NCBI GenBank assembly: GCA_002390745.1
Contig: DGQK01000023.1
Location: 46,104 to 70,103, forward strand
Direction: 5' to 3'
DNA length: 24,000 nucleotides
Source: Bacteroidetes bacterium UBA4416
GTDB taxonomy: Bacteria > Bacteroidota > Bacteroidia > B-17B0 > Aurantibacillaceae
The translations under genes and the position numbers were made by a program. This document shows, piece after piece, positions 884-7,080 of the stretch (positions within the stretch are counted from its first letter, which is position 1; each line of letters opens with the position of its first letter). The notes under the pieces were generated by a model. It made no database searches. It had not been told where the DNA came from and saw only the letters and a program-made list of their open reading frames with translations.

Positions 884-957
884 GCCTTCTTAACCCAACA
901 GGTAGAGGCGCTTGTCTTAGGAACAAGTTAGTATTGGTTCGGATCCGATAGAAGGTA
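884..957 (+). tRNA. tRNA with anticodon TAG on a short-variable-arm (type I) body, copy 1
   Basis: Hand-folded cloverleaf: acceptor GCCTTCT/AGAAGGT (G1-U72), anticodon stem CTTGT/ACAAG, loop CTTAGGA, 5-nt variable loop, T arm ATTGG-TTCGGAT-CCGAT, discriminator A. It carries a Leu anticodon but lacks the long variable arm of bacterial tRNA-Leu. Confidence 0.6.
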
Positions 958-993
958 CAGAAAAGAAAAAGAGCAACAAAACAAAAAATAAAA

Positions 994-1064
994 TGCCGGA
1001 TCGTCTAAAGGCAGGACATCAGACTTTGATTCTGAGAGTAGTGGTTCGATCCCATTTCCGGCAA
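994..1064 (+). tRNA. tRNA-Gln(TTG)
   Basis: Acceptor TGCCGGA/TCCGGCA (U1-A72, typical of bacterial Gln), anticodon stem TCAGA/TCTGA, loop CTTTGAT, T arm AGTGG-TTCGATC-CCATT. No CCA is encoded. Confidence 0.8.
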
Positions 1065-1068
1065 CTTT

Positions 1069-1142
1069 GCCTTCTTAGCCCAATCGGTAGAGGCGCTTGT
1101 CTTAGGAACAAGTAAGTGTAAGTTCGAATCTTACAGAAGGCA
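1069..1142 (+). tRNA. tRNA with anticodon TAG on a type I body, copy 2
   Basis: Acceptor GCCTTCT/AGAAGGC and the same anticodon arm as copy 1 (loop CTTAGGA). The T arm GTAAG-TTCGAAT-CTTAC differs from copy 1 by compensatory changes. Confidence 0.65.
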
Positions 1143-1311
1143 CATAAAAAGCTTGTTTTAAACAGGCCGGTCATCACGCCTTGCGGCTGTTGTGATGAGA
1201 CATACATAAGGAGGAATAACCGGGCGGGGCCCGGACAGGCTTGCTAAGCTATGTGTCGCGCTCCGCGCGATGGGTGTCGGGAACTCATTTCTCCGCAGAA
1301 GAAAATAAATT

Positions 1312-1394
1312 GGAGAGTAGCGACCATTGGTGGTCAGGCAGACTTGAAATCTGTAGCGGTCTGAAAGGACAGGGTTCGATTCCTATACTCTCCG
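1312..1394 (+). tRNA. tRNA-Ser(TGA)-like, type II, weak T stem
   Basis: Acceptor GGAGAGT/ACTCTCC, discriminator G, D stem GAC/GTC with loop CATTGGTG, anticodon stem GCAGA/TCTGT, loop CTTGAAA, long variable arm. The T stem CAGGG/CCTAT pairs at only 3 positions. Confidence 0.55.
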
Positions 1395-1401
1395 CAAATA
1401 C

Positions 1402-1474
1402 TGGGATGTAGCTCAACGGTGAGAGCAAGTGCCTTATACGCACGAGGTTGTTAGTTCGAGTCTAACCACCCCAA
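1402..1474 (+). tRNA. tRNA with anticodon TAT (Ile-UAU-like)
   Basis: Acceptor TGGGATG/CACCCCA (one A-C mismatch), D arm GCTC-AACGGTGA-GAGC, anticodon loop CTTATAC, T arm GTTAG-TTCGAGT-CTAAC. Confidence 0.6.
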
Positions 1475-1483
1475 CAAAATATA

Positions 1484-1567
1484 CGGGAAGTATTTCAATT
1501 GGTAGATTGCTGGCTTTGGGCGCTAGTGGTTGCAGGTTCTCACGCCGGGGCGTGACTGCCTTCCCGA
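1484..1567 (+). tRNA. tRNA-Pro(TGG)-like with a 16-nt hairpin in place of the 3' part of the T-loop
   Basis: Acceptor CGGGAAG/CTTCCCG, discriminator A, anticodon stem CTGGC/GCTAG, loop TTTGGGC. The T region is GCAG-GTTC-[TCACGC CGGG GCGTGA]-CTGC. The D stem is weak. Confidence 0.5.
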
Positions 1568-1571
1568 CAAA

Positions 1572-1644
1572 CGATTTGTGGTGTAATGGATAACACACCC
1601 GGCTACGGACCGGGAGACTTAAGGTTCGAGTCCTTACAGATCGG
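1572..1644 (+). tRNA. tRNA-Arg(ACG)
   Basis: Acceptor CGATTTG/CAGATCG, D arm GTGT-AATGGATA-ACAC, anticodon stem CCCGG/CCGGG, loop CTACGGA, T arm TAAGG-TTCGAGT-CCTTA. Confidence 0.8.
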
Positions 1645-1658
1645 CTAAATACAATATA

Positions 1659-1741
1659 CGGGAAGTAGCTCAGTTGGGAGAGCGCGTGCTTTGGGAGCAT
1701 GAGGCCGCAGGTTCTCACGCGAGACGTGACTGCCTTCCCGA
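1659..1741 (+). tRNA. tRNA-Pro(TGG)-like with a 15-nt hairpin in the T-loop
   Basis: Acceptor CGGGAAG/CTTCCCG, canonical D arm GCTC-AGTTGGGA-GAGC, anticodon stem CGTGC/GCATG, loop TTTGGGA. The T region is GCAG-GTTC-[TCACG CGAGA CGTGA]-CTGC. Confidence 0.55.
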
Positions 1742-1746
1742 CAAAA

Positions 1747-1819
1747 GGAAATATAGCAAAGATGGTCAATGCGGCAGATTGAAAATCTGCAGATGTAGGT
1801 TCGAGTCCTGCTGTTTCCA
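1747..1819 (+). tRNA. tRNA-Phe(GAA)
   Basis: Acceptor GGAAATA/TGTTTCC, anticodon stem GCAGA/TCTGC, loop TTGAAAA, T arm GTAGG-TTCGAGT-CCTGC, discriminator A. Confidence 0.75.
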
Positions 1820-1831
1820 CAGGAAATACAT

Positions 1832-1905
1832 GGTGAGATTAGTGTAAAGGCTAACACGACGGGCTGTGGATCCGTTAATACTGAGTTCGAGTCTCGTATT
1901 TCACC
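1832..1905 (+). tRNA. tRNA-His(GTG) with encoded G-1
   Basis: G-1 (1832) is opposite C73 (1905). Acceptor GTGAGAT/ATTTCAC, D arm GTGT-AAAGGCTA-ACAC, anticodon stem ACGGG/TCCGT, loop CTGTGGA, T loop TTCGAGT. Confidence 0.8.
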
Positions 1906-1910
1906 CACAA

Positions 1911-2004
1911 GGGAATGCGCTAACGCTGGAGAGTTAGGCTGGTCTGTAAAACCAGTGCCATTCGGCTGAGAAGGTTCTCACGGCGTGTCGTGATTCCATT
2001 CCCA
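1911..2004 (+). tRNA. tRNA-Tyr(GTA)-like, type II, with a 16-nt hairpin in the T-loop
   Basis: Acceptor GGGAATG/CATTCCC, D arm CTAA-CGCTGGAGAG-TTAG, anticodon stem CTGGT/ACCAG, loop CTGTAAA, long variable arm. The T region is GAA-GGTTC-[TCACG GCGTGT CGTGA]-TTC. Confidence 0.5.
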
Positions 2005-2213: not shown

Positions 2214-3149
2214 ATGACTGTAAGTTCAAACCTGGACATTTTCTTGAATAAGAAAGTCGTGGATTATTCAAAAGACGAAGGGATTCAAAACCCCGGGGAA
2301 TTTGTTTACCGCATCCGTATCTCCTATGACGATTTTGAAGATGGCGTTTCTATTGAAAGCCTGACAGACGATTTCGCGAAAGATCCGAATGCAGGGGAGG
2401 TAAAAGAGATCATCTTCGGCGCGTTTGACTTTGAATCGAGTAACTCTACCGAGGGCATCGTGAACAAGCTGGTCGAGTATAAAGGAGTATTTAAAAACCT
2501 GAAAGCGGTTTTCATTGGAGATATCACCTATGAGGAAAATGAGATCTCCTGGATCAACCAAAGCAATGTAGGGCCTGTGCTCGACGCTTACCCAGACCTG
2601 GAGCATTTCCAGGTGCGCGGCGGAAACGATCTTTCCTTCGGAAAACTGGAACATACCAATCTGAGGACCCTGATCATCGAAACCGGCGGCTTGCCGCCTA
2701 ATGTGGTAGAAGAAGTGTCAGCTGCGCATTTGCCGAACCTTCAAAAGCTGGAAATGTGGTTGGGATCCGATAACTACGGTTTCAATTCTACCATCGGTGA
2801 TTTTGCCGTGATTATTTCCGGAAAGTCGTTTCCAAGCCTTAATCACTTAGGATTAATGAATAGCGAGATCCAGAATGAGATTGCGATCGAAGTCGCGAAA
2901 TCGCCGGTGCTGGCTCAACTCGACGTGCTGGACATGTCGATGGGAAATATGGATGATAAAGGGGGAGAAGCCATTCTCAACAGCGAAGGCATGAAACACC
3001 TGAAGTACATTAATCTGCGTCATCATTATTTAAGTGATCAGATGATGTCGAAGCTGAGCGCACGTTTCCCGGCCATTAACCTGGACGACCAGGAAGAAGC
3101 CGATGATGATGGCGATGAAAGCTATCGTTACATTGAAGTATCGGAATAA
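2214..3149 (+). CDS. Leucine-rich-repeat-like cytoplasmic protein (STM4015-family-like)
   Basis: 311-aa ORF with repeated LxxLxL segments (LRTLIIETGGL, LPNLQKLEMWL, FPSLNHLGLMN, LAQLDVLDMSMGNM, LKYINLRHHYL) and an acidic C-terminal tail. It is the first gene of a tightly packed operon. The family name is from memory. Confidence 0.6.
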   Translation: MTVSSNLDIFLNKKVVDYSKDEGIQNPGEFVYRIRISYDDFEDGVSIESLTDDFAKDPNAGEVKEIIFGAFDFESSNSTEGIVNKLVEYKGVFKNLKAVFIGDITYEENEISWINQSNVGPVLDAYPDLEHFQVRGGNDLSFGKLEHTNLRTLIIETGGLPPNVVEEVSAAHLPNLQKLEMWLGSDNYGFNSTIGDFAVIISGKSFPSLNHLGLMNSEIQNEIAIEVAKSPVLAQLDVLDMSMGNMDDKGGEAILNSEGMKHLKYINLRHHYLSDQMMSKLSARFPAINLDDQEEADDDGDESYRYIEVSE

Positions 3150-3151
3150 GC

Positions 3152-4276
3152 ATGCGCTTTTTTGTTTTAGGAAATCCTGAAAACCGAAGGGTAAGCTTGT
3201 TTTCTGAAAGCTTTGAGTCATCCGGTTTTGGGCAGGTAATCGTCTTATCCTACCAGGATGTTTTGAAGACGCCGGTTTTGAAAGAAACAGATTTTTCAGG
3301 AAGCATCGTGAGGATCGAATCACCGGGAGAAAATTTTGAGGTCAGGAAATTGCTGATAGCGAAAGGTGCTGCCGCTGCCCGGGAGGAAGGCCTGCCCTTT
3401 GTTTCGGAAGAGCAGGCCCTGCTGTTGGAAGATCCCTCGGAGCTGATCCATACCAGGCAATGGTATTTGGGTTTCAGGGAGCTGTTGCAGGAAATTGACC
3501 TGGAGATGCAACGCCATCCCGGGGCTGCATTCATGAACCTTCCTTCGGATATAACGCTGATGTTCGATAAAAAAGCCTGTCAATCGCTGTTGAAAAAGCA
3601 CGATGTTCAGATTCCTGATTTTCATTGTTCCATCAACAGTTATGAGCAATTGTTGGAAATGATGAGGCTGAGAAAATGGAACAACGTATTTATTAAGCCT
3701 GCGCATGCCTCATCAGCTTCCGGAGTCATTGCTTTCAGGATAGCCGGAGAGAAGCAACAGGCCATTACCACGATCGGTATCAGCCGGAAAGGCGCATCTG
3801 TTCGGTTGTTCAACGCGTTAAAGGTTAAGACCTATACAGCTAAATCCGATATTGAAACGATCATTGACAGGGTTTTGCAGGAAAATGCCATTGTAGAAAA
3901 ATGGATCCCTAAAGCGACTATCGGCGACGACTATTTTGATCTCAGGATATTGGTCATTTGCGGACATGCCAAACACATGGTTGTGAGAAAAAGCAAACAG
4001 GTAATCACGAATCTGCACCTGGGCAATCGACGCGGCACGCCGGAGGAGCTGGAACAGGCGATTGGGAAAGAAAAAACAGAAGAGGCCAGGCGTCTTGCCG
4101 AAAAGGCCGCCGGCTGTTTTGTAAAATCCCTTTATTGTGGGGTTGATGTTCTGGTTGGCGCTGATAAGAAAGACCTTCGCGTATTGGAGGTCAATGCGTT
4201 CGGCGATTTATTGCCAAACGTGCTGCATCACAACAAAAGCTGCTACGAGGCCGAGATAGAGGTCATGATGAAATAA
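3152..4276 (+). CDS. ATP-grasp ligase-like protein (STM4014-family-like)
   Basis: It starts 2 nt after the upstream stop. RimK/ATP-grasp-like motifs are present: VFIKPAHASSASGVIAF, DLRILVICGHAKHMVVRKS..ITNLHLGNRRG, VLEVNAFGD. Confidence 0.7.
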   Translation: MRFFVLGNPENRRVSLFSESFESSGFGQVIVLSYQDVLKTPVLKETDFSGSIVRIESPGENFEVRKLLIAKGAAAAREEGLPFVSEEQALLLEDPSELIHTRQWYLGFRELLQEIDLEMQRHPGAAFMNLPSDITLMFDKKACQSLLKKHDVQIPDFHCSINSYEQLLEMMRLRKWNNVFIKPAHASSASGVIAFRIAGEKQQAITTIGISRKGASVRLFNALKVKTYTAKSDIETIIDRVLQENAIVEKWIPKATIGDDYFDLRILVICGHAKHMVVRKSKQVITNLHLGNRRGTPEELEQAIGKEKTEEARRLAEKAAGCFVKSLYCGVDVLVGADKKDLRVLEVNAFGDLLPNVLHHNKSCYEAEIEVMMK

Positions 4277-4281
4277 GGATA

Positions 4282-4974
4282 ATGAAGCTACCGTCTACCA
4301 TACAAACGATTCTCTTTGATCTCGATAATACGCTGATTGACCGCGACCGTGCCATGAAGGATGCGGTCAGGCATTGGTTGAAAAACCAGGGGACGATAGA
4401 TGAGGAAGATATAGAAACGGAATTAAACCGTGTCCTGGAAAAAGACAATTCCGGTTATACCGACAGGGATTTATTTTGTGAATGGTTGCTCAGCGGCTAT
4501 GCGAACGCTGCCACCAAAGCAAGCCAAACAGCAAGCGAAATATTGAGAGCCCTACAGGAGCTGACAATTTCTTACCTTCAGCCCGATCCTGATATCCTGG
4601 ATACTTTGCAGCAGCTGGAACAGCAGTATCAATTACTTATCGCCACCAATGGAAGTCAATACGTTCAGCAAAAAAAAATGGCGAAGGCGAACCTGGACTC
4701 CGTATTTTCTGCTGATCGCATTTTTATTTCAGAAGCACTTGGTCACCAAAAGCCGGATCCCGCGTTTTACATGAAGATCCTGAAAGCGATCGGGAGAGAT
4801 CCGGCGCAATGCCTTATGGTGGGCGATAATTATATAAATGATGTGGAAGGTGCCAGGCATTGTGGCCTGTATACCTGCTGGATCGCCCATAGGAAAGCCA
4901 GCGGAAAAAAGTCCGCAGATATGACGTTTAACCATATTACAGAAGCAAGACAATGGCTCCGGGAATCAATATGA
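4282..4974 (+). CDS. HAD-superfamily hydrolase (phosphatase-like)
   Basis: HAD motif I ILFDLDNTLID, motif II IATNGS, motif III KPDP, motif IV VGDNYINDVEGA. Confidence 0.85.
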   Translation: MKLPSTIQTILFDLDNTLIDRDRAMKDAVRHWLKNQGTIDEEDIETELNRVLEKDNSGYTDRDLFCEWLLSGYANAATKASQTASEILRALQELTISYLQPDPDILDTLQQLEQQYQLLIATNGSQYVQQKKMAKANLDSVFSADRIFISEALGHQKPDPAFYMKILKAIGRDPAQCLMVGDNYINDVEGARHCGLYTCWIAHRKASGKKSADMTFNHITEARQWLRESI

Positions 4975-5777
4975 ATGAGGTCGTCAAAAGTATGGACGTA
5001 CTTTTTATCACCCTGGACAGCCTCCGTTACGATGTTGCCCGGGAGGCATTTGATAAAGGGATGCTTCCAAACTTCAAATGCCTTTTTCCTGATGGCTGGC
5101 AGAAATGCCATTCACCCGGAAGCTTTACCTTTGCGGCGCACCAGGCCTTTTTTGCAGGCTTTCTGCCAACACCTTCCAGTCATCCGAAACAGGAACGCTT
5201 AATTGCGGCACAGTTTACCGGGAGCGAAACCACAACAGAAAATACCCTGGTAGTTGAAAGCGCCGATATTGTGAAAGGCTTTGAAGAGATTGGCTACAAT
5301 ACCCTGTGTATCGGTGGTGTAGGGTTTTTCAATAAGCAAACCGCTTTAGGATCCGTTCTGCCCTCTTATTTCCGGGAAAGCTTTTGGGAGCCCCGTTTTG
5401 GCGTTACAGAAAAGCAATCAACGAAATGGCAATTTTCAAAAGCCGCTCAGCTGATAGAAGAGCATAACAGGCAGCCCTTATTCCTGTTTATCAATGTGTC
5501 TGCGATCCACCAGCCAAACTGGTTTTACCTGCATGAAGAAAAAACAAGCGATAGTAAAGAATCACACGCTGCTGCCTTGCAGTATGTGGATTCACAGTTG
5601 CCCCTGCTTACCGATGCCTTAAAGAAAAAGCGCGATACCTTTTGCATTGTATGCTCGGATCATGGCACGGCTTACGGCGAGGATCAGTATTCCGGGCATC
5701 GCATCGGGCATCCCACCGTGTGGGAGGTTCCGCTGGCAACCGGTATTATAAAAAAAGAAATTGCAAATGAATTCTAA
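4953..5777 (+). CDS. Alkaline-phosphatase-superfamily, NPP-like phosphodiesterase/hydrolase (STM4013/SEN3800-family-like)
   Basis: VLFITLDSLRYD (metal Asp), GSFTFAAHQAFFAG (resembles the TFPNH Thr-nucleophile motif of type I phosphodiesterases) and CSDHGTAYGE. An alternative start at ATG 4971 gives an ATGA overlap with the HAD stop. Confidence 0.7.
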   Translation: MAPGINMNEVVKSMDVLFITLDSLRYDVAREAFDKGMLPNFKCLFPDGWQKCHSPGSFTFAAHQAFFAGFLPTPSSHPKQERLIAAQFTGSETTTENTLVVESADIVKGFEEIGYNTLCIGGVGFFNKQTALGSVLPSYFRESFWEPRFGVTEKQSTKWQFSKAAQLIEEHNRQPLFLFINVSAIHQPNWFYLHEEKTSDSKESHAAALQYVDSQLPLLTDALKKKRDTFCIVCSDHGTAYGEDQYSGHRIGHPTVWEVPLATGIIKKEIANEF

Positions 5778-7080
5778 ACCCGTATTCAATAATAGGTTCG
5801 AAGGGTATGCTTATTCGTACCCTCATAAACATAGCTACCGCCGTATGGAGCCGGTGTCACTGGAGCAGCTCTGGGCTTCCGAAAAAAAAGACGCCCTCTT
5901 TCTCTACATTCACCTGCCTTTTTGTGAAATGCGTTGTGGCTTTTGTAATTTGTTTACCATCGCTAATCCGCAGGAAACGATAGTGGACGCCTATCTGAAC
6001 ACGCTGCAACAGCAGGCCGAAACGATCCGGAGAGTCATAAAGCCCGAATCCTTCGCGCAAATTGCCGTTGGAGGCGGTACACCTACATTTCTGGAAATGC
6101 CTCAGCTGGAAAAACTATTTTCGATCATGCGCGCTTTAGGCGCTGAGCCGAAGGATATTCCCGCTTCTTTCGAAATGTCGCCAAAAACGATTAACCCGCA
6201 GAAACTGAAATTCCTGGAAGAGAACGGTGTCGACCGCGTGAGTATTGGCATTCAGAGCTTTCTCGATGGAGAGACCAAAGCCCTCGGAAGACCTCAAAAA
6301 AATAAAGAAGTAGAAGAGGCGCTCAACCTGATCCGTCAGTACCGCTTCAACACCCTGAACCTGGACCTGATCTATGGCACCTATGGGCAAACGCCTGCGG
6401 CCTGGCAGTATTCCCTGGAGCAGGCTGTTAGCTTTCATCCGGAGGAGATTTTTATTTATCCTTTGTATGTCAGGGCCTTAACCGGCATCAATAAGCTGGA
6501 TCAGAATGCGCAGGACCTTCGCGAAGACCTTTACCTGCTTGCGAAGAAATTCCTGACGTCAGCCGGATACGAGCAGATCTCCATGCGCCTCTTCCGTTTG
6601 AAAACCGTACGCTCCTCCAAAGCAGCGCTCAGCTATAGTTGCCAGGAAGACGGCATGATCGGTCTTGGTGCGGGAGCGCGCTCCTACACAAAGCACCTGC
6701 ATTATTCTTCGGAATATGCGGTGGCAAGGGGCAATATCAAACACATCATCAACGAATACATTGCTAAAAACAGTAGTGATTTTGAATTCGTGGATTATGG
6801 AATAGAGCTCCCGGTCGAAGAACAGAAACGTCGCTTTGTGATCAAGTCCATTCTTCATGCGAGCGCCCTCGATACGCGGCGTTACGAGTCCCTGTACGGA
6901 AACAAGCTGCTGTCGGATTTCCCACAACTGGGACTGTTGCTGGAGAACCAGCTTGCGGTTATGGATGAAAGCCAAAAGATGCACCTCACGTCGCAGGGGA
7001 CGGATTACTCGGATGCGATCGGCCCCTGGCTGTATTCTCCCTATATCAAAGAACTCATTCAAACCTTCGAACTGAAATGA
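5761..7080 (+). CDS. HemN-like radical SAM enzyme (STM4012-family-like)
   Basis: CxxxCxxC cluster motif FCEMRCGFCNL, GGGTPTF, and HemN-like length. The likely start is ATG 5767, which overlaps the upstream gene. Confidence 0.8.
   Translation: MQMNSKPVFNNRFEGYAYSYPHKHSYRRMEPVSLEQLWASEKKDALFLYIHLPFCEMRCGFCNLFTIANPQETIVDAYLNTLQQQAETIRRVIKPESFAQIAVGGGTPTFLEMPQLEKLFSIMRALGAEPKDIPASFEMSPKTINPQKLKFLEENGVDRVSIGIQSFLDGETKALGRPQKNKEVEEALNLIRQYRFNTLNLDLIYGTYGQTPAAWQYSLEQAVSFHPEEIFIYPLYVRALTGINKLDQNAQDLREDLYLLAKKFLTSAGYEQISMRLFRLKTVRSSKAALSYSCQEDGMIGLGAGARSYTKHLHYSSEYAVARGNIKHIINEYIAKNSSDFEFVDYGIELPVEEQKRRFVIKSILHASALDTRRYESLYGNKLLSDFPQLGLLLENQLAVMDESQKMHLTSQGTDYSDAIGPWLYSPYIKELIQTFELK

Follow-up and report, generated by a model that had tools for sequence, protein, structure and literature searches.

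The 24,000-nucleotide stretch of DNA analysed here, referred to as the window, comes from Bacteroidetes bacterium UBA4416 (GenBank assembly GCA_002390745.1, contig DGQK01000023.1, positions 46,104 to 70,103 of the forward strand) and carries at 884–2004 an array of 12 transfer RNA (tRNA)-like genes, which lie on one strand within 1.12 kb (about 10.7 per kb) in the neighbourhood of genes for an RNA ligase, a WYL-domain regulator, the Ro60/TROVE protein Rsr and a series of Y-RNA-like RNAs. From sequence comparison we consider it probable that this array is a supernumerary, horizontally acquired tRNA reserve of the phage type, which forms one unit with a tRNA damage-response island. Two features are notable, the conserved coupling of the array to an Rsr/Y-RNA repair island in Bacteroidota and the occurrence of T-loop hairpin variants among its genes. 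The short-arm Leu-UAG, Ile-UAU and 8/4 Ser genes are hallmarks of phage and horizontally transferred arrays and have all been reported earlier; the T-loop hairpin is the only clearly new element of the array.

The comparison is built on a search with Rsr, which found 580 relatives, and the best 80 of these 580 loci, all from Bacteroidota and at 64–81% identity, were compared. Loci that have to be told apart are given L-numbers, of which L001, L003–L005, L007 and L025 are bacterial, L082–L084 and L088 are IMG/VR contigs and L235 is the Bacteroides phage crAss001. At least six tRNA genes were found within 10 kb of rsr in 10 of the 80 loci and at least three in 15, while most rsr loci, including several of the closest, have no array, and several relatives with 74–78% Rsr identity have none. 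The absence of the array from most close relatives implies that it is dispensable and patchily distributed, and that other genes must provide the essential isoacceptors. Synteny in the order Rnl–leader–array–WYL–rsr is nevertheless kept in L004, L005 and L025, and in relatives it extends to Y-RNA-like genes with tRNA-Lys. This patchy yet syntenic distribution, taken with duplicated isoacceptors, non-standard tRNA bodies and a defective Tyr gene, argues for a supernumerary rather than a housekeeping array.

The genes of the array

The array comprises the following genes.
884–957, + strand: tRNA-Leu(UAG) copy 1 (Leu-1), short variable arm, degraded (ARAGORN; Rfam 44 bits)
994–1064, + strand: tRNA-Gln(UUG), U1-A72 (ARAGORN; Rfam 57.5 bits)
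1069–1142, + strand: tRNA-Leu(UAG) copy 2 (Leu-2), short variable arm, A73, D loop and 3-bp D stem of the Leu type (Rfam 64.5 bits)
1210–1295, + strand: 8/4-type tRNA-Ser(GCU), inside the former '170-nt gap' (conservation in L004, L005 and L025; consensus fold)
1312–1394, + strand: tRNA-Ser(UGA), 8/4 architecture (ARAGORN -ps90; tRNA-Sec model 35.8 bits; minimum free energy cloverleaf; L004 orthologue)
1402–1474, + strand: tRNA-Ile(UAU) (ARAGORN; Rfam 63.2 bits)
1484–1567, + strand: tRNA-Pro(UGG)-like gene (Pro-1), T-loop hairpin 1540–1555, weakened D stem (alignment to normal orthologues in L005, L001 and L003; hairpin swap)
1572–1644, + strand: tRNA-Arg(ACG) (ARAGORN; Rfam 60.5 bits)
1659–1741, + strand: tRNA-Pro(UGG)-like gene (Pro-2), T-loop hairpin 1715–1729, cloverleaf otherwise perfect (partial Rfam match 22 bits; hairpin swap; alignment)
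1747–1819, + strand: tRNA-Phe(GAA) (Rfam 69.3 bits)
1832–1905, + strand: tRNA-His(GUG), encoded G-1 opposite C73 (ARAGORN; Rfam 46.4 bits; 5' flank)
1911–2004, + strand: tRNA-Tyr(GUA)-like gene, long variable arm, T-loop hairpin 1978–1993, 3-bp T stem (sequence reading; alignment)

An earlier sequence-only reading of this DNA had described eleven tRNA genes interrupted by one 170-nt gap; the dense same-strand cluster is confirmed, and it has 12 members because the gap holds the Ser-GCU gene. Eight of the genes whose anticodons were listed there have a recognisable tRNA fold (Leu-UAG twice, Gln, Ser-UGA, Ile-UAU, Arg-ACG, Phe and His), whereas the two TGG genes and the GTA gene are non-canonical and bear the T-loop hairpin. 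The TTT gene that it placed in a second array is a tRNA-Lys(UUU) at 11639–11711, also called by ARAGORN. With default settings ARAGORN called seven array genes between 884 and 1906 (Leu-tag 884–958, Gln-ttg 994–1065, Leu-tag 1069–1143, Ile-tat 1402–1475, Arg-acg 1572–1645, Phe-gaa 1747–1820 and His-gtg 1833–1906) in addition to Lys-ttt at 11639–11712, and the Rfam tRNA scores of the seven range from 44 to 69 bits.

A canonical 7/5 T arm, with a 5-bp stem, a 7-nt loop and the pairs T54-A58 and G53-C61, is present in six array genes, partial in Leu-1, which has G58, and absent from Pro-1, Pro-2, the Tyr-like gene and both 8/4 Ser genes. Identity elements are retained where they can be read: His has G-1 opposite C73, Pro has C1-G72 with A73, Gln has U1-A72, and Ser combines G73 with a long variable arm. 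The Lys and Tyr anticodon loops, CUUUUAA and CUGUAAA, are common bacterial forms. By their sequences, nine of the 12 genes look competent for translation. The lack of an encoded CCA had been listed among the non-standard features; it is true of all 12 genes, each of which has C next and mostly CA, and it is not diagnostic, because two ordinary long-arm Leu genes in related loci likewise end in A73-C.

The type I body ascribed to the two TAG genes is real, since both are 74 nt long with a variable loop of 5 nt and so lack the long arm of bacterial class II tRNA-Leu. Alignment with the ordinary 85–86-nt Leu genes of related loci finds only the long arm missing; A73 is kept, as are the D loop and the 3-bp D stem of the Leu type. 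Across 14 short-arm Leu genes from bacterial and viral arrays, compensatory change is seen in 16 of the 20 pairs of the consensus cloverleaf, A73 is invariant, and wherever Leu-UAG occurs in an rsr-linked array it takes the short-arm form. These patterns of substitution point to selection on the structure of the short-arm Leu family, as they do for the Ser-GCU gene described below. The earlier argument for such selection had cited fully compensatory changes between the two T arms; the Leu-1 T stem ATTGG/CCGAT includes one G.U pair. Leu-1 is a degraded, worn copy, with G1.U72, an A10.C25 mismatch, G58 and the T loop TTCGGAT, and it scores 44 bits against 64.5 for Leu-2.

The Ser-UGA gene is called only at a relaxed ARAGORN threshold and scores better with the tRNA-Sec model (35.8 bits), which it favours because of its 8-bp acceptor stem, the build of its D stem (5 bp, with a 4-nt loop) and its T stem of 3–4 bp; the 3-bp T stem previously remarked on belongs to an 8/4 architecture. 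The Ser-GCU gene at 1210–1295, which is conserved in L004, L005 and L025, has an 8-bp acceptor stem, a 6-bp D stem, the anticodon loop YTGCTAA (GCU), a long variable arm, a 4-bp T stem with the unusual T loop GTCGGGA, and G73. Compensatory change affects 13 of its 33 pairs in the sequences of four species, with the variable arm strongly covarying, and the same build recurs in L082, a 194-kb IMG/VR contig, inside a 25-gene array. Both genes have the features that define (8/4) tRNA-Ser, an 8-bp acceptor with a 4-bp T stem, a long arm, G73 and a Ser anticodon, a class known from phage tRNA clusters and active in Escherichia coli (PMC5389517). They share with the (8/4) tRNA-Ser/allo-tRNA type the 8-bp acceptor, 3–4-bp T stem, 5–6-bp D stem, long arm and G73, and unlike allo-tRNAs they have true Ser anticodons (UGA and GCU), so that no recoding is implied; (8/4) tRNA-Ser of this kind was not reported from Bacteroidota in that study (PMC5389517). 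Directly before Ser-GCU, 1144–1209 is a 66-nt spacer specific to the window with a hairpin TCATCAC-N14-GTGATGA (about 1166–1196), which includes the word TCACG.

Relatives in bacteria and viruses, and a possible role

The rsr-linked arrays have a recurrent core of Phe-GAA, Pro-UGG, Arg-ACG, Lys-UUU, Gln-UUG, His, Asp, Tyr, Leu-UAG, Asn, Ile-UAU and Glu-UUC, with Ala, Gly, Val, Thr, Met, Cys and Trp being rare; Ile-UAU is found in five of them and also in viral arrays. All seven Q34/xm5s2U34-type species fall within the 12 most recurrent of 27 species in these arrays (post hoc p=9e-4). The core set and the idiosyncratic tRNAs persist across Chitinophagales-like metagenome-assembled genomes, Flavobacterium and Chryseobacterium; the array-bearing relatives that can be cultivated include Flavobacterium cheonanense JCM 17069 (L053) and Chryseobacterium aquaticum (L078).

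Ten of 26 Rsr-bearing IMG/VR contigs have at least six tRNA genes within 10 kb, one having 27 and another 42. Among 120 viral loci taken at random, which are shorter, no locus has as many as six (Fisher p=6e-9). An exact 21-nt stretch from the D-stem and anticodon-arm part of short-arm Leu-UAG occurs in three IMG/VR contigs, each time inside an array of 8–25 genes in which further short-arm Leu genes have different anticodons, and two of these three arrays contain Ile-UAU. The arrays of L082–L084 and L088 hold homologues of the short-arm Leu, Ile-UAU and 8/4 Ser genes. In L088, 27 tRNAs are found together with Rsr, an SPFH protein and an RNase-T-like exonuclease, the same partners as in the window, and the Ser–Ile pair of the window aligns with an adjacent Ser–Ile pair in T4-like Klebsiella phages. 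The sequence-only reading had likened the array to the accessory tRNA arrays of phages and mobile elements and had stressed its linkage to RNA ligases and Rsr; the patchy occurrence at rsr loci, the shared 21-mer and the viral counts bear out the first point, and the synteny with Rnl, WYL and rsr in L004, L005 and L025 the second. A phrog_850 protein of L083 was considered as a close Rsr homologue and rejected by BLASTP, being a DUF2828/DUF7788 protein of the same PHROG family.

The cultured phage crAss001 (L235, NC_049977) has, in this order, a TROVE gene, an RNA of tRNA shape and an SPFH gene. This RNA is unannotated, lies at 6084–6227, 270 nt after TROVE, and matches the Rfam tRNA model at 46.6 bits, with an 82-nt insert in place of the anticodon arm; the SPFH/band-7 gene is 2.3 kb downstream of it. 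From its sequence it is a candidate phage analogue of Y RNA, with unpermuted tRNA topology.

Several known systems resemble the array in part. Long horizontally transferred tRNA arrays (L-arrays) exist in several phyla including Bacteroidetes, and those of Anabaena are induced by translational stress together with rtcB (PMC8421152); in cyanobacteria L-arrays neighbour rtcB and are co-regulated with it, and both backup and sponge roles have been proposed. The array described here shares with L-arrays and tRNA array units (Anabaena trn operon; PMC8421152, PMC4758250) that it is dense, patchy, linked to phage or mobile DNA and probably supernumerary. L-arrays are held to be silent under standard conditions, induced by translational stress and aminoacylated (PMC8421152). 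They are further recognised by a patchy distribution among relatives that speaks against vertical inheritance, seen here in the 10 of 80 rsr loci with at least six genes, and by relatives on phage or plasmid vectors, represented by L082–L084 and L088 (PMC8421152); of the thresholds for a tRNA array unit, its density exceeds the 2 per kb required, and its 12 genes, with a tRNA-Lys 9.6 kb away, fall short of 20 (PMC4758250). It differs from L-arrays in having 12 genes, a selective instead of a near-complete isoacceptor set, three replaced T loops and a constant gene order shared with Rnl, Rsr, a WYL regulator and Y-RNA-like genes. Acquired clusters of Mycobacterium mucogenicum and M. phocaicum contain a short-arm Leu-TAG and an expressed Ile-TAT and a phage origin has been proposed for them (PMC6582537); normal long-arm host Leu copies exist alongside. 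The mycobacterial clusters belong to another phylum, are linked to an HNH endonuclease and not to Rsr or ligases, and have no reported T-loop hairpins.

Closer in gene content are the phage arrays with RNA repair (T4 Rnl1/Pnkp and jumbo phages; PMC7824862, PMC10264068), which have in common with the window tRNAs, Rnl, RtcB, RlaP and TROVE and are U34-rich. Jumbo phages are described as carrying tRNAs, either RtcB or Rnl, RlaP and sometimes also TROVE as counter-defence to tRNA attack (PMC7824862), phage tRNAs rescue infection from tRNA-cleaving defences (PMC10264068, PMC11555353, PMC11464382), and RlaP repairs tRNA halves that are missing a nucleotide (PMC12776372). Phage tRNAs that resist anticodon nucleases are marked by differences from the host isoacceptor in the anticodon loop, at or close to the site of cleavage (PMC10264068). 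In contrast to these phage arrays, the module of the window lies in a bacterial chromosome-like context and would presumably protect the cell, not a virus. The rsr-yrlBA-rtcBA operon of Salmonella, which responds to tRNA damage, likewise has tRNA-like noncoding RNAs after Rsr and a link to RtcB (PMC4201824, PMC7790460), whereas the window has a WYL regulator instead of RtcR/sigma-54 and real tRNA genes beside the mimics. A full-text literature search found no paper linking Ro60/Rsr loci with tRNA arrays.

A mechanism can be outlined for the proposed reserve. Anticodon nucleases or other ribotoxins would deplete particular host tRNAs and the island would be induced; Rnl, RtcB and RlaP (ligases and nucleotidyltransferases, with a Thg1-like enzyme in relatives) would reseal cleaved tRNAs, Rsr with Y RNAs and the exonuclease would dispose of those beyond repair, and the array would re-supply the most vulnerable species, mainly the two-codon-box Q34/xm5s2U34 tRNAs together with Arg-ACG, Pro, Phe, Leu-UAG and Ile-UAU. 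Colicin E5, PrrC and zymocin-type enzymes attack the seven Q34/xm5s2U34 species, and colicin D attacks Arg-ACG.

Some observations weigh against the interpretation as a reserve. The match to nuclease targets is post hoc, and the precedent for Phe, Pro and Leu-UAG as targets is weaker. No anticodon nuclease or toxin gene was identified in the window by PADLOC, PHROGs or relaxed Pfam searches of the open reading frames (ORFs) without assignment. A terminator-like hairpin lies 12 nt 5' of the first array gene and no clear promoter was found upstream of the array, so that it may be transcribed weakly or only under certain conditions. Signs of decay in Leu-1 and the three hairpin genes also fit a slowly eroding acquisition.

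If the reserve interpretation is right, some Bacteroidota keep spare tRNAs beside tRNA ligases, end-repair enzymes and the Rsr/Y-RNA machinery, and the link between Ro60 and tRNA metabolism, for which the evidence so far is mainly the tRNA-like shape of Y RNA, would become directly testable in cells. The phage counter-defence package of tRNAs, repair enzymes and TROVE would then have its counterpart on a chromosome, where it may protect cells from ribotoxins. The variants with a T-loop hairpin are a natural experiment on the replaceability of the tRNA elbow, and may mark the conversion of tRNAs to regulatory or adaptor RNAs.

T-loop hairpins and competing explanations

Pro-1, Pro-2 and the Tyr-like gene were missed by ARAGORN with default settings and by Rfam at the gathering score. 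In each, exactly positions 57–61 of the T loop are swapped for a 15–16-nt hairpin, TCACG-N5-6-CGTGA. Orthologous Pro and Tyr genes in L005, L001, L003 and L025 have normal T arms (GCAGG TTCGAGT CCTGC and ATAGG TTCGAAT CCTAT), with GAGTC or GAATC at these positions. When the hairpin was exchanged for GAATC in silico ARAGORN called both Pro genes and still did not call the Tyr-like gene, because only three T-stem pairs are left in it. The hairpin genes are predicted to fold as cloverleaves with a T arm in the form of a long helix, from which the 4 nt GUUC bulge out. They are unlikely to be competent for translation, and by their sequences are probably either disabled copies or tRNA mimics.

The window has five copies of the pattern TCACG-N4-6-CGTGA where 0.2 would be expected, always on the same strand and inside noncoding RNA genes. 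The fourth and fifth copies (10764–10779 and 11267–11280) are in Y-RNA-like modules by rsr, the former being followed directly by AGGTCGAAG and the latter lying directly 3' of a complete T arm. The hairpin stem is invariant across copies, and the loops vary in sequence and length. A Tyr gene of L004 bears the same hairpin, its body differing from that of the window gene by compensatory changes, and an invariant stem in tRNA bodies that change in a compensatory manner suggests that the stem is under selection. A Lys-like gene of L004 has a different palindrome, CCCGATAGCTATCGGG, at this T-loop site.

Hairpin variants were absent from the loci and the viral and metagenome contigs examined, except the window and L004. 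A scan of viral contigs for GGTTCTCACG-N-CGTGA gave at least 120 matches, none of which was tRNA-like after the hairpin-swap test among the matches listed, and a search of metagenome contigs for any 10–30-nt insertion at the same Pro T-loop site gave four matches, all non-tRNA; the absence of tRNA matches from these scans indicates that the variants are rare. One match to the hairpin pattern, in L054, was set aside as due to chance, as it lies inside an RtcB-like coding sequence. An intron was rejected as an explanation of the hairpin, since no contiguous removal gives a 5-bp stem and a 7-nt T loop and no bulge-helix-bulge motif is present, as was a double-stranded operator, the variable spacer of 4–6 nt fitting a hairpin better than a dimer site of fixed spacing.

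The hairpin may be either a selfish palindrome that targets T-loop DNA or a selected tag common to Y-RNA-like RNAs. In the second case it might be a protein-binding tag that turns tRNAs into tRNA/Y-RNA hybrids recruiting Rsr or a repair enzyme, a tentative proposal that we regard as rather doubtful from the sequences at hand; were it correct, the locus would capture an evolutionary path from tRNA genes to adaptors of the Y-RNA type. It is weakened by the presence of the hairpin in two genomes only, by other palindromes that invade tRNA-like genes of L004, and by the otherwise degraded state of two of the carriers.

Loss of the canonical T loop from three genes whose cloverleaf is otherwise kept raises a more general alternative to the reserve, namely that the array RNAs, and especially those of the hairpin genes, titrate tRNA-cleaving nucleases as decoys or act as adaptors of Rsr, and do not take part in translation. 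The same hairpin recurs in the two Y-RNA-like modules by rsr, each time beside a T-loop-like motif, a tRNA-shaped RNA with a replaced anticodon arm follows the crAss001 TROVE gene and similar RNAs occur in L004 and L025, and comparable roles have been proposed elsewhere, as a sponge for the Anabaena array tRNAs (PMC8421152) and as a competitive inhibitor for YrlA's tRNA-like domain (PMC7790460). We nevertheless think this alternative unlikely, given that nine genes retain their anticodon loops, aminoacylation identity elements and a canonical or known-functional (8/4) architecture, that anticodon identity, needless for a pure decoy, is conserved across genera, and that the hairpin variants are limited to the window and L004.

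The array might instead be the eroding remnant of a prophage or mobile element, which arrived with phage-derived RNA-repair genes and is now neutral, decaying and invaded by palindromes. The state of Leu-1, the weak D stem of Pro-1 and the 3-bp T stem of the Tyr-like gene would be expected of such a remnant, as would the tRNA-like genes of L004 broken by the CCCGATAGCTATCGGG palindrome and long insertions and the terminator-like hairpin directly 5' of the array. Neutral decay is hard to reconcile with a core set and odd tRNAs that persist across genera with abundant compensatory change, or with the synteny kept with Rnl, WYL and rsr, and we regard this explanation too as improbable. An ordinary housekeeping operon that lies near repair genes by chance is very hard to credit: its genes would be closely spaced on one strand, as here, and tRNA genes of the phylum normally encode no CCA, but such a cluster is missing from most rsr loci of close relatives, the duplicated Leu-UAG and Pro-UGG, the defective T loops, the short-arm Leu, the 8/4 Ser and Ile-UAU are foreign to housekeeping genes, long-arm Leu genes are present elsewhere in related loci, and the defective Tyr-like gene alone cannot supply the essential tRNA-Tyr.

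Two further kinds of interrupted gene were seen in the related loci. The second array of L004 (12549–14040) has tRNA-like genes broken by CCCGATAGCTATCGGG in the T loop and in the anticodon loop, and insertions of 75–130 nt occupy the anticodon loop of a Thr-like gene in L004 and a Ser-UGA-like gene in L025 (2306–2536).

The surrounding island

The array is accompanied by the following features.
2–622, + strand: ATP-dependent RNA ligase (Rnl, DraRnl/PHA02142 type), 3' part, cut by the left window edge (Pfam RNA_ligase E=2e-29)
776–880, + strand: leader of about 100 nt, with a terminator-like hairpin at 847–872 and a U run, 12 nt before the first tRNA (terminator scan)
7916–8932, - strand: WYL/WCX-domain transcription regulator, divergent from rsr (Pfam; PADLOC WYL)
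9186–10703, + strand: Rsr (Ro60/TROVE), the anchor gene of the comparative loci (Pfam TROVE and Ro60 vWA domain)
10738–12000, + strand: series of Y-RNA-like/tRNA-like modules with tRNA-Lys(UUU) at 11639–11711 (weak YrlA matches; several T-arm motifs; folds)

The Rnl ORF has no in-frame stop from base 2, a full-length orthologue of 365 aa stands directly 5' of the array in L004, and the end of the gene is also kept 5' of the L025 array. The leader is conserved in the window, L004 and L005, and its hairpin also in L025; this strong hairpin might terminate Rnl transcription or act on the array as a conditional attenuator. The same WYL gene is found between array and rsr in L004 and L005, and its product is probably the regulator of the island. 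RtcB and RlaP are also part of the window island, and RtcR and RtcA domains were not found among the ORFs of the window. The wider context is chromosome-like, with a protease bearing a type IX secretion system sorting domain and metabolic genes, and contains no phage structural genes.

The closest syntenic array is that of L005, where the WYL regulator and rsr are followed by RtcB and RlaP. The order in L004 is reverse transcriptase, Thg1-like gene, Rnl, array, WYL (on the opposite strand), rsr, Y-RNA-like genes and a second array. The reverse transcriptase and the Thg1-like gene, the latter for a tRNA 5'-end repair polymerase, are directly upstream of Rnl at 3026–6224 of that locus, and the Thg1-like gene represents a fourth class of tRNA-repair enzyme in the L004 island.

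The tRNA-Lys(UUU) gene directly after rsr is the most conserved tRNA across related loci. At least five modules follow rsr, with T arms of the GGTTCGAATCC type, segments that resemble a D arm and recurring 5' motifs, for example ATGCCGTAGA...TACTTCG. The best matches to Rfam YrlA (RF02553) score 25.1 and 20.7 bits in 11496–11984, with 15–16 bits inside the array, against a gathering score of 69 bits; by these matches the modules resemble YrlA but are not members of the family at its gathering score. In L005 (11560–11720), and also after rsr in L007 and L025, a conserved sequence that looks structured, GACCCGATAGCTTAAAAGGAAAAGCTGTGG...CAGTGCACCGAAA...AGGGAAGCGTATTTACAGCC, takes the place of the first Y-RNA-like module, and no Rfam family was found for the first 300 nt of the L005 post-rsr sequence.

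The motif CGTTCTTTGACAT is present at 2132–2144, 10858–10870 and, as an inverted pair, 11727–11756, that is, 5' of the STM4015 cassette and of Y-RNA-like genes. It recurs after arrays and after rsr in many loci, and GTTCTTTGA is found just after arrays and 70–400 nt after rsr in many related loci; from these positions the two motifs probably serve the island as a common promoter or operator.

Between the array and the WYL gene, 2214–7922 holds a six-gene cassette that is not in L004 or L005 and was assigned by NCBIfam to STM4015, STM4014 (ATP-grasp), a HAD hydrolase, STM4013 (sulfatase-like), STM4012 (HemN-like radical SAM) and STM4011 (radical SAM). After the Y-RNA region, 12340–14468 encodes an SPFH/band-7 protein, a small S24-peptidase-like protein and an RNase-T/ExoX-like exonuclease, and the recurrence of SPFH and the exonuclease with Rsr in L088, and of SPFH in crAss001, suggests a conserved Rsr–SPFH–exonuclease module.

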